Below are positions 7,492 through 9,845 of a DNA stretch of 12,639 bases, in pieces. The notes beneath the pieces are model-generated. The model did not search any database, was not told the DNA's origin, and worked only from the letters and a program-made list of their open reading frames with translations. Positions within the stretch are counted from its first letter, which is position 1. Every line of letters starts with the position of its first letter. The position numbers and the translations under genes are program-made. The DNA comes from a virus (lineage: Duplodnaviria > Heunggongvirae > Uroviricota > Caudoviricetes), in IMG/VR virus record IMGVR_UViG_2740892258_000015, positions 1 through 12,639 of that record; one strand, 5' to 3'.

Positions 7492-7644
7492 ATGCAGTGG
7501 AAAATCATCAACGGTTGGTACTGCGTTACTGCATGCGGATTCATGAGCTGGAAGTTCCGCACCTTACAGGAAGGCATTAAGTGGGCTTTCGTCAGCAAAG
7601 AAGCTCGCGATGTGGCCAACGATAACGAGATATGGGAGGTCTGA
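7492..7644 (+). CDS. Small ORF (50 aa), first gene after the pL-like promoter; not in the supplied ORF track
   Basis: ATG at 7492 with GAGGT 8 nt upstream. Translated by hand as MQWKIINGWYCVTACGFMSWKFRTLQEGIKWAFVSKEARDVANDNEIWEV. The next gene's RBS lies inside its 3' end. Confidence 0.35.
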   Translation: MQWKIINGWYCVTACGFMSWKFRTLQEGIKWAFVSKEARDVANDNEIWEV

Positions 7645-7646
7645 TA

Positions 7647-7946
7647 ATGAACGTTAATCAGCAGAAAAATCTTCAAAAAATCATGCTGGCATTCGACAAG
7701 GACTACCGCCTGTCAGAACAGCTATATGACCGACAAGTTGAACTGATCGAGAGCATCCGGCTTCATCAACTGGCCTCAACTTTCGACGCTGTAACAGGTA
7801 AAGGCGTTCGCCAGGAAGTACTGGAGGCCGCTAAAGACAGTCCAGAGTTCGAAGAACTGATGGATTCCTACCGGCGCGAGGCAATGGCAATTATAGCGCG
7901 CTGGGATCTGGCTGATCAGCTTGATGGGCAGAGGGACGCGGCATGA
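7647..7946 (+). CDS. Hypothetical 99-aa protein (tentatively Gam-like host-nuclease inhibitor)
   Basis: Internal ATG at 7647 with RBS GGAGG 7 nt upstream; the track ORF starts at 7632. C-terminal DSPEFEELMDSYRREAMAIIA loosely resembles lambda Gam [21 protein letters not shown] (from memory, unverified). Size and position upstream of exo/annealase fit. Confidence 0.45.
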   Translation: MNVNQQKNLQKIMLAFDKDYRLSEQLYDRQVELIESIRLHQLASTFDAVTGKGVRQEVLEAAKDSPEFEELMDSYRREAMAIIARWDLADQLDGQRDAA

Positions 7947-8149
7947 AACCAACACTCCTCTCATTGCTGCGAGGTGGAAAACACAGCATCCGAGATATGG
8001 CAAAGATTCTTGGTATCTCAAGATCGAAGGTTTCTTGGTTCATCGCTGAGCTTGAACGTCGCAAATGGGTAGAGGTAACCAGGAGCGCAATATATTTCCA
8101 CGATGGAACCCGTTCCAACAAGCAGAACGAATACAAGGTTAAGTTATGA
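7943..8149 (+). CDS. Small winged-helix/HTH DNA-binding protein
   Basis: Start overlaps the upstream stop as ATGA; RBS GAGGG 7 nt upstream. HTH-like segment IRDMAKILGISRSKVSWFIAELERRKWV. Confidence 0.5.
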   Translation: MKPTLLSLLRGGKHSIRDMAKILGISRSKVSWFIAELERRKWVEVTRSAIYFHDGTRSNKQNEYKVKL

Positions 8150-8967
8150 ATACTGGCATCTATTTCGACATCAGCAATGAGGACTACCACGCCGGTGACG
8201 GCGTGAGTAAGTCGCAACTGGACATGGTTGCCAAGAATCCGGCGCTTCTTAAATGGGTTCAGGCAGCACCAGAAGACGAAGAGAAAAAGTCTGCACTGGA
8301 TATGGGAACCGCATTGCACTGTCTGCTTCTGGAGCCTAGAGAGTTCGACAAACGCTTCATTGTTTCACCGAAATTCGATCGTCGGACGAAACAAGGTAAA
8401 GCTGACGAAGAGGCATTTCTTCGTGATGTGGCGGATATGGGGATTACGGTACTTGATGCCGAGCAGTGGCGGAAACTGGAACTGATGCGTGATAGCGCAA
8501 TGGCTCACCCGGCGGCACGCTGGATGTTGGAAGCACCTGGTTACTGCGAAGCGTCAATGTACTGGAACGATGAAGAAACGGGTGAGTTGTGCCGAATTCG
8601 TCCAGACAAATGGCTGAACGAGCACAACGTGATCATCGACGTGAAAAAGGTTGCAGATATGGACCGTTTTGCACGTCACATCGAGGAATTCCGCTACCAC
8701 GTGCAGGACGCAATGTACCGCGAAGGCGCAATGAGGGTTACTGGTCAGCCGCATGGTTTTTTCTTTCTTGCCGTGAGCGAAAGCATTGATTGTGGTCGGT
8801 ATCCGGTACGCGTGTTCGAGCTGGATGCGCCGGATGTCGATGCCGGGCACGCTCTGTTCCGCCGGGATCTGAATACCTATCACGAATGCCGCATCAACGA
8901 TGAGTGGGGCGGAGTGGAAATTATTAAACGCCCTGACTGGGCACGTAAACAGGATATGTACGTATGA
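8146..8967 (+). CDS. RecE-like PD-(D/E)xK exonuclease (exonuclease VIII-type)
   Basis: Start overlaps the upstream stop as ATGA. N-terminal YFDISNEDYHAGDGVSKSQLD resembles the RecE nuclease family (from memory). Putative catalytic residues in RPDKW and IIDVKK. Immediately upstream of, and coupled to, the annealase. Confidence 0.7.
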   Translation: MNTGIYFDISNEDYHAGDGVSKSQLDMVAKNPALLKWVQAAPEDEEKKSALDMGTALHCLLLEPREFDKRFIVSPKFDRRTKQGKADEEAFLRDVADMGITVLDAEQWRKLELMRDSAMAHPAARWMLEAPGYCEASMYWNDEETGELCRIRPDKWLNEHNVIIDVKKVADMDRFARHIEEFRYHVQDAMYREGAMRVTGQPHGFFFLAVSESIDCGRYPVRVFELDAPDVDAGHALFRRDLNTYHECRINDEWGGVEIIKRPDWARKQDMYV

Positions 8968-9845
8968 GCAATGATATCGCAATCACATCACAACCAGGCG
9001 CAACTGTAGGCACTGCTGCGGCAATCTTCAGCCCCGAGGGAATGAATCAACTGGTGCGTTTCGCTGAGTTGATGTCACAAAGCAAAGCGACTGTACCGAA
9101 ACATCTTGAAGGCAAACCTGCCGATTGCCTGGCGGTGACCATGCAGGCGGCACAGTGGGGAATGAACCCTTTCGCCGTGGCGCAGAAAACGCATGTGGTA
9201 AACGGAACGTTAGGCTACGAAGCACAGTTGGTAAACGCGGTCGTATCCTCGTCAAGCCTGCTGGCGACACGCCTGAATTATCGCTGGAGCGGTGACTGGT
9301 CGAATGTTAACGGCAAAACAGATAAATCACCGAATCTGACGGTAACTGTGTCAGCAGTTCTTAAAGGAGAAGCAGAACCACGTGAGCTTACCATCAGTAT
9401 GGCGCAAGCCGGAGTGCGTAACTCTCCATTGTGGGAACAGGATCCGCGCCAGCAGCTTGCCTATCTTTGCACGAAACGATGGGCTCGCCTGCACGCTCCT
9501 GATGTACTTCTCGGTGTTTACACACCAGACGAATTACAGGAAACGGCACCGCGCGTTGAGCGAGACATTACTCCGCAAACTACCACTGCTGCGGGAATGA
9601 ACAGTCTGATCAACGCTAAAACAGTGAAAAAGCCTGATGAGCAAACGCGTAAAGCGGATAGCCGTGATCCAGAAGAAATGCTGATGGCCTTTACCAGCGC
9701 AGCGATGAATTACAGCACTGTCTCCGAACTGGATAAGGCTTACAAATACATTGCACAAAAACTTTCAGATGATGACGAACTGCTGGCAAAAGCCACCGAC
9801 GTTTACAGCGTTCGTCGGGAAGAATTAAACGAAACATCTATGTAA
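8964..9845 (+). CDS. Single-strand annealing protein, Red-beta/RecT superfamily
   Basis: Start overlaps the exonuclease stop as ATGA. Segments SPLWEQDPRQQLAYLCTKRWARLHAP and ERDITP parallel lambda Bet (GPWQSHPKRMLRHKAMIQCARLAFG; ERDITP), recalled from memory. Confidence 0.8.
   Translation: MSNDIAITSQPGATVGTAAAIFSPEGMNQLVRFAELMSQSKATVPKHLEGKPADCLAVTMQAAQWGMNPFAVAQKTHVVNGTLGYEAQLVNAVVSSSSLLATRLNYRWSGDWSNVNGKTDKSPNLTVTVSAVLKGEAEPRELTISMAQAGVRNSPLWEQDPRQQLAYLCTKRWARLHAPDVLLGVYTPDELQETAPRVERDITPQTTTAAGMNSLINAKTVKKPDEQTRKADSRDPEEMLMAFTSAAMNYSTVSELDKAYKYIAQKLSDDDELLAKATDVYSVRREELNETSM

Follow-up and report, generated by a model that had tools for sequence, protein, structure and literature searches.

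A likely distant homologue of lambda Gam in the early-left operon of an epsilon15/phiV10-like prophage of Escherichia coli

We analyzed a 12,639-nucleotide stretch of viral DNA (IMG/VR record IMGVR_UViG_2740892258_000015, positions 1 to 12,639; the whole stretch is hereafter called the window), in which five tightly packed genes at positions 7,492 to 9,845 end with a phage exonuclease and a single-strand annealing protein. The second of these genes encodes a protein of 99 amino acids (aa) that is likely to be homologous to Gam, the RecBCD inhibitor of phage lambda, and that we place in the Gam family as a new, divergent member; the operon that encodes it is otherwise ordinary and already annotated. 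The region is the usual early-left (pL-type) operon of an epsilon15/phiV10-like (Uetakevirus) prophage of E. coli. Bases 7350–9900 are 100% identical to sequence in E. coli IHE3034 (NC_017628.1) and APEC O18, and show 93–98% nucleotide identity to the Uetakevirus phages phiV10, TL-2011b and vB_EcoP_ZX5; IHE3034 carries the element as a prophage, with the integrase adjoining guaA. The module was found in 566 of 5426 complete E. coli genomes, and also in phages of Salmonella, Klebsiella and Enterobacter. All five genes are annotated in RefSeq (IHE3034), at the coordinates listed in Table 1, as two hypothetical proteins (50 and 99 aa), a 'MarR family' regulator (68 aa), a PD-(D/E)XK nuclease and a RecT recombinase.

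A prior reading of the DNA letters by a model that made no database searches (the sequence-only reading) had tentatively called the 99-aa protein Gam-like on the basis of a faint C-terminal resemblance, and had proposed a profile search as a check. We therefore compared an alignment of 15 sequences of the 99-aa family, including distant representatives (29–54% identity), with an alignment of 18 GamS-length members of PF06064 using hhalign. The two families matched with 89.3% probability (P 2.1e-6, score 37.5), colinearly over 57 columns (residues 31–86 of the 99-aa protein against GamS 33–90), and a relaxed hhalign run extended the match end to end over 93 columns, pairing F16/Y20 with GamS W15/Y19. 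Control scores were obtained from 300 column shuffles of each alignment (means 11.2 and 11.5, maxima 19.6 and 20.8), from reversed alignments, in which helical periodicity is kept (12.1 and 15.6), and from comparisons of the 99-aa family with P22 Kil, cIII, Arf, Abc1, Abc2 and a KilR (7–14). The Pfam Gam model PF06064 also matched one family member, P0058 (E 0.0042, residues 31–94 against model positions 33–96), in the same register as hhalign, and in the C-terminal helix the same positions are invariant in both families (F68/F72, E70/E74 and R77/R81, 99-aa protein/GamS). A BLASTP comparison with lambda Gam returned a 33-residue match in another register (residues 10–42 against Gam 100–132), which was treated as noise.

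The predicted fold agrees with the profile comparison. An AlphaFold2 model of the 99-aa protein, built from an alignment without Gam sequences, reached a predicted local distance difference test score (pLDDT) of 92.6 and a predicted template modelling score of 0.78. It has the N-terminal helix and compact helical body of GamS and superposes on it with a deviation of 1.3 Å over 76 residues. At the level of composition the protein is likewise of the small, acidic Gam type, with 19 acidic and 13 basic residues and an isoelectric point of 4.7, compared with 98 aa and 5.0 for GamS. The tentative Gam call thus survived both the profile test and this structural test; the resemblance is not confined to the C-terminal part and extends from end to end.

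A number of observations weigh against this assignment. Identity to GamS is only ~18–20%, and the score of P0058 against Pfam Gam (17.7 bits) lies below the gathering score of 25, so that by the curated hidden Markov model threshold the 99-aa protein falls outside PF06064 and belongs with Gam only as a remote homologue by profile–profile comparison. Direct searches of the window protein, as a single sequence and as a profile of close homologues, gave no relevant match in Pfam, NCBIfam or PDB sequences at E <= 1–10. Alignment confidence is low in the N-terminal third, the part that in Gam forms the helix plugging the single-stranded DNA channel of RecB. An earlier AlphaFold run on a shallow alignment (sequences 73–99% identical) gave a pLDDT of only 66.7, and a Foldseek search of the PDB with that model returned nothing; the poor first model was cured by adding distant members from an exhaustive search of representatives. 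AlphaFold was moreover trained on the PDB, which includes the Gam structure 2uuz, and a literature search found no biochemical or genetic data on the 99-aa family. The likeness to Gam might then be fortuitous, with the protein no more than a small, acidic helical bundle of a generic kind, unrelated to Gam in origin and function. The lack of a significant direct sequence match would fit this, weak profile and fold matches are common for small helical proteins, and a BFVD fold search with the 99-aa model found two good but unnamed matches and no named Gam. Set beside the shuffled and reversed controls and the agreement of register between two profile methods, we regard such a coincidence as improbable.

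The family is small, with 32 representatives (E <= 1e-3) among 1.84 billion proteins, and occurs only in a narrow range of prophages of Enterobacterales. A profile scan of genome contigs with a narrower alignment recovered only three species representatives, and a scan of viral contigs only close relatives. By tblastn, 36 phage records hold a homologue, which is a 'hypothetical protein' wherever it is annotated, as in RefSeq; PHROGs lists the family (phrog_856) as of unknown function, and the re-annotated epsilon15 record, which cites HHpred for the neighbouring genes, leaves gp36 unnamed. No earlier assignment to Gam for epsilon15, phiV10 or Uetakevirus came up in a literature search.

Gene context places the 99-aa gene where a gam gene would be expected, in the early-left region next to an exonuclease/annealase pair, not only in the window but also in phiV10, epsilon15 and five further related loci (L088–L092). 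In relatives, the gene that follows it is an exonuclease wherever that gene could be identified, mostly DUF3799/RecE-like and, in L091 and epsilon15, YqaJ/lambda-exo-like, and RecT follows the exonuclease wherever the sequence of the relatives reaches far enough. The stop codon of the 99-aa gene overlaps the next start (ATGA or GTGA) in phiV10, epsilon15, six distant members and 80 of 80 IMG/VR loci, and the overlap with the exonuclease spans two exonuclease families and two phage backbones. The second of these backbones is lambdoid (L090, with an S24 repressor, YdaS/YdaT and Rep_O); there a KilR homologue (3724–3924) lies immediately upstream of the Gam-like gene, which is followed by the exonuclease and RecT, an order that mirrors kil-gam-bet-exo of lambda. 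One conserved feature of the family calls for caution, as its C-terminal R-D/N-A-A segment (window 7931–7946 and the equivalents in 80 viral loci) is encoded by the same bases as the downstream Shine-Dalgarno sequence GAGGGA and the ATGA. The segment is therefore under a double constraint, and part of its conservation may come from translation signals rather than from protein function.

Lambda GamS is a dimer that sterically blocks RecBCD's DNA-binding site; its acidic side chains stand in for the phosphates of duplex DNA, and the 3'-single-stranded DNA channel of RecB is plugged by one of the N-terminal helices (PMC5218532). From its homology to Gam, the 99-aa protein would most likely be a dimer, acidic and helical, that sits where host RecBCD binds DNA ends, which would protect linear phage DNA and leave double-strand ends to the phage exonuclease and annealase. 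That it inhibits RecBCD is a reasonable expectation, held with less assurance than the homology because the N-terminal helix is the least conserved part of the protein and the activity is read from its relationship to Gam. On balance we favour the account as a whole, in which a repressor-controlled early-left operon supplies a Gam homologue that blocks RecBCD on behalf of the phage exonuclease and annealase. When the repressor leaves the two operators that bracket the promoter, one transcript would be made, encoding in order the 50-aa protein, the Gam homologue, an acquired 68-aa winged-helix protein, the RecE-type exonuclease and RecT, and then xis and others.

Alternatively, the protein may be a true homologue with the Gam fold whose target has shifted to a different enzyme, either a nuclease acting on DNA ends or a defence enzyme (SbcCD or a helicase-nuclease defence system, for instance), or which serves the phage exonuclease as a cofactor. 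Similarity is lowest in the region of the N-terminal helix, through which Gam fits into the RecB channel, all relatives examined have kept the 4-nt overlap with the start of the exonuclease gene, even across exonuclease families, and the family is restricted to its narrow set of prophages. However, the fold matches GamS closely, size and acidity are similar, the hosts are, to our knowledge, all enterobacteria that carry RecBCD, and lambda gam is likewise directly upstream of the recombinase pair. A specific cofactor role is made less likely by the pairing of the gene with two unrelated exonuclease families, and we consider a changed target unlikely overall. A more specific version, to which we give slightly less weight still, is that the phrog_856 proteins descend from Gam and retain its fold but have a remodelled N-terminal plug helix and are obligatorily co-translated with the resection nuclease of the phage, acting on a target other than RecBCD (SbcCD or a helicase-nuclease defence) or as a factor for exonuclease loading or hand-off; if true, this would be a new activity on the Gam scaffold. 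Inhibition of RecBCD by the 99-aa protein remains our preferred interpretation.

The features of the operon and its flanks are collected in Table 1.

Table 1. Genes and signals of the early-left operon and its flanks, in window coordinates
Feature	Position	Strand	Basis
Prophage repressor, 194 aa, two HTH_3 domains	6754..7338	+	Pfam HTH_3 1.2e-9; directly upstream of operon
Intrinsic terminator after repressor gene	7359..7386	+	8-bp GC-rich stem then TTTTTATT
Operator palindrome TTACCTAATGGGTAA, upstream of -35	7396..7410	.	TTACC-N5-GGTAA
pL-like sigma-70 promoter, TTGACA(7430)-17 nt-AATTAT(7458)	7430..7458	+	10/12 matches, best within 6300-10400
Operator palindrome TTACCTCAACGGTAA, abuts -10	7458..7472	.	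Starts 62 bp after operator at 7396
50-aa early protein (phrog_898; phiV10 p39, epsilon15 gp37)	7492..7644	+	phrog_898 E 4e-38
99-aa protein, likely distant homologue of lambda Gam (phrog_856; phiV10 p38, epsilon15 gp36)	7647..7946	+	Profile and fold
68-aa bare winged-helix protein (MarR_2/HTH_24-like), inserted accessory cassette	7943..8149	+	MarR_2 4.8e-6, HTH_24 6.3e-6
RecE-type PD-(D/E)XK 5'-3' exonuclease, nuclease domain only, 273 aa	8146..8967	+	Pfam DUF3799 3.4e-22
RecT-family single-strand annealing protein, 293 aa	8964..9845	+	Pfam RecT 1.1e-31, phrog_561 1e-144
GC-rich hairpin GCGGCGC-CACAC-GCGCCGC, without T-run, between recT and AlpA/Xis-like gene	9854..9872	+	-17.3 kcal/mol, z -2.2

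The exonuclease and annealase assignments of the sequence-only reading hold. The exonuclease scored 79.8 bits against DUF3799 (cutoff 26), matched phrog_412 (exonuclease VIII) and aligned with positions 606–873 of 877 of the NCBIfam exodeoxyribonuclease VIII model (E 1.2e-91), corresponding to the C-terminal nuclease domain of RecE; it does not reach the whole-protein cutoff of that model because the N-terminal 600 residues are absent. The annealase scored 110.4 bits against Pfam RecT (cutoff 24) and thus belongs to that family. In phiV10 (L002, 3594–5354) exonuclease and RecT are annotated as one fused coding sequence of 586 aa, whereas the window has them as separate genes, joined by the ATGA overlap at 8964.

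Control of the operon by the upstream repressor is well founded, given the operators that bracket the promoter, the promoter match itself and the annotation of epsilon15. The product of the repressor gene is a helix-turn-helix protein in RefSeq, and the epsilon15 record describes its homologue as a repressor with an HHpred match to 5d50 (phage SPC32H repressor). Seven TTACC-N5-GGTAA sites were observed in the window where 0.21 were expected, a number reached in none of 200 shuffles. Several stand upstream of the repressor gene, in the divergent region (6636 and 6684, with a degenerate copy at 6667), and in the epsilon15 record repressor-binding sites written as ATTACC-N5-GGTAAT are arranged in the same way. 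The phiV10 record annotates a terminator at the position equivalent to that after the repressor gene, and no terminator-like site was found on the + strand between the promoter and 9845. The single pL-like operon of closely abutting genes that had been proposed is thus supported by promoter, operators and the epsilon15 record. The operon runs on past recT into an AlpA/Xis-like gene at 9895. The hairpin between the two is probably a pause or processing site rather than a terminator; the epsilon15 record places a stem-loop for 'transcriptional pausing' at the equivalent position.

Operator-like sites also occur elsewhere in the window. Two perfect TTACC-N5-GGTAA palindromes at 4291–4305 and 4353–4367 have starts separated by 62 bp, as do the two operators of the pL-like promoter, and flank a - strand TTGATT-17-TTTAAT just upstream of a 115-aa open reading frame (ORF; 3940–4287, - strand), so that 4291–4367 looks like a third, putative repressor-controlled promoter. 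A site with one mismatch (TTACCTTTGAGGTAC, 6299–6313) adjoins a terminator-like hairpin on the - strand (6328–6347), and both sit downstream of a 76-aa ORF (6369–6599, - strand).

Direct reading of the bases confirmed the junctions between the five genes. Gene 1 (50 aa) is preceded by GAGGT at 7479–7483, 8 nt ahead of its ATG. Its TGA (7642–7644) is separated by a 2-nt gap (7645–7646) from the ATG of gene 2 (99 aa) at 7647, the ribosome-binding site of which, GGGAGG (7634–7639), lies inside gene 1. The starts of genes 3 (68 aa), 4 (273 aa) and 5 (293 aa) overlap the preceding stops as ATGA at 7943–7946, 8146–8149 and 8964–8967. With abutting or overlapping stop and start codons and Shine-Dalgarno sequences within the upstream gene, the arrangement has the form of a coupled operon and is compatible with translational coupling, judging from the bases. 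The ATGA overlaps are unremarkable in themselves, since 4-nt overlaps recur at about seven other same-strand junctions of the prophage (RefSeq coordinates).

The sequence-only reading had gone further and deduced a fixed stoichiometry from these junctions, which does not follow from overlaps that are routine in this prophage. In its strongest form this would mean that the chain enforces fixed ratios of all five products, implying a five-part complex. The ATGA overlaps at three junctions, and at the fourth a 2-nt gap preceded by an internal Shine-Dalgarno sequence, would suit such a design, but the same 4-nt overlaps are found at many unrelated junctions, each gene has a separate Shine-Dalgarno sequence that differs in strength from the others, and the set of genes varies among relatives. 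The 68-aa gene is absent from about 94% of them, a gene of 319–337 aa separates the first two genes in some, and 20 of 86 related loci carry swapped exonuclease and annealase families. We consider a fixed ratio of the five proteins very improbable, and find it unsupported in view of the variable gene set and the separate Shine-Dalgarno sequences.

The 50-aa ORF had been described as unlisted, which was due only to the length cutoff of the ORF list. It is a real gene under purifying selection but not a novel one, being already present in public records (WP_001198621.1 in RefSeq). Against epsilon15, L089 and L092 the ratio of nonsynonymous to synonymous substitution rates (dN/dS) was 0.11–0.24, with substitutions mostly at third codon positions, and on these grounds it is protein-coding. 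Homologues with 52–98% identity occur in prophages of Escherichia, Salmonella, Klebsiella and Enterobacter; conservation covers the N-terminal ~40 residues (MQWKIINGWYCVTACGLMSWKFRTL..I.WAF), and the tail varies. The protein had no match in Pfam or NCBIfam, and neither its family nor the 99-aa family showed similarity to P22 Kil, cIII, Arf, Abc1, Abc2 or one KilR; an identity of the 50-aa protein as Kil, cIII or Arf is not supported, for lack of profile similarity to P22 Kil, cIII, Arf and KilR. The gene is separable from the 99-aa gene, as the intervening 319–337-aa gene of L088 (3034–3993), L089 (264–1244) and L092 (2980–3993) shows; this gene has no Pfam match, and the slot that it occupies is another variable cargo site of the operon. 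In L090, with its other backbone, the 50-aa gene is absent. From its position, we would guess that the 50-aa protein is a small, host-directed early effector.

The 68-aa gene is a minority cassette, inserted at the junction of the Gam-like and exonuclease genes, and not part of the core of the module. In phiV10 the junction reads ...GCGGCATGAAACCGGGAATTTATTTCGAC, so that the stop of the Gam-like gene overlaps the exonuclease start and there is no 68-aa gene. In the window the ATGAAACC start now belongs to the cassette, and a new ATGAATACTGGC start serves the exonuclease. The gene is missing from phiV10 and most relatives and is present in 9 of 86 related loci and in 34 of the 5426 complete E. 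coli genomes, compared with the 566 that carry the module. Homologues with 73–77% nucleotide identity are found in unrelated phages of Salmonella and Klebsiella. The protein is a winged-helix protein by its scores against MarR_2 (27.1 bits, cutoff 27) and HTH_24 (26.1 bits, cutoff 21.9), but the match covers residues 5–49, only the winged helix-turn-helix core, and at 68 aa it does not have the full-length MarR architecture (~140 aa with N- and C-terminal dimerization helices). It is best called a bare winged helix-turn-helix protein, not a MarR regulator, and judging from its sequence and distribution is an accessory, moron-like gene for a putative DNA-binding protein. The coupled junctions, the small ORF and the winged-helix gene are all ordinary phage genome organization. 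Further downstream, the gene for an MT-A70 family DNA methyltransferase (10533–11194) is split over two frames and is a frameshifted pseudogene in IHE3034 RefSeq; in phiV10 it is intact (651 nt).

The Gam assignment fills a functional gap in the early operons of Uetakevirus. It also describes a natural RecE/RecT-type module with its own Gam-like partner, which could serve as a compact, host-matched recombineering cassette. The divergent sequence offers a means of asking which features of Gam matter for RecBCD inhibition, and which trigger the defence systems that sense RecBCD inactivation.

Small early proteins encoded near a phage recombinase, such as Abc1/Abc2 of P22 and gp5.9 of T7, neutralize or redirect RecBCD. 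Abc1 and Abc2 have no detectable similarity to the 99-aa family (hhalign 9–14). The closest known counterpart is lambda Gam (GamS, PF06064; PDB 2uuz, and 5mbv for the RecBCD complex), with which the 99-aa protein shares a length of ~98–99 aa, an acidic, all-helical make-up, a superposable fold and a place in a pL-type operon upstream of an exonuclease/annealase pair. It differs in its low identity, below the Pfam threshold and with function assigned by homology only, in its divergent N-terminal helix without a long, GamL-like N-terminal extension, and in its partners, a RecE-type nuclease and RecT (the exonuclease coming before the annealase) in place of Exo and Bet. These partners resemble RecE and RecT of the Rac prophage, gene 4 matching the C-terminal nuclease domain of RecE and gene 5 the RecT family, except that the exonuclease comprises no more than the 273-aa nuclease domain. 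An equivalent of Gam seems to be missing from RecET operons (PMC4381043), whereas the operon described here has a candidate for one. A precedent for cryptic Gam relatives is provided by Plu-gamma (Plu2934) of a Photorhabdus luminescens prophage, a small protein encoded upstream of an annealase/exonuclease pair that has weak HHpred similarity to Gam and boosts recombineering as a RecBCD inhibitor would (PMC4381043). Its reported similarity to Gam is limited to 27 N-terminal residues (probability 72%, E 2.2; PMC4381043), whereas, compared with that published description, the similarity of the 99-aa protein is strongest in the C-terminal two-thirds and is joined by a match in fold. Closest of all to the operon as a whole are the early-left operons of other Uetakevirus phages (epsilon15 gp37–gp34, phiV10 p39–p36 and SPC32H), which have the same repressor, operators and promoter and the same order of 50-aa, 99-aa, exonuclease, RecT and AlpA/Xis genes, and from which the prophage in the window differs by its extra 68-aa winged-helix gene.

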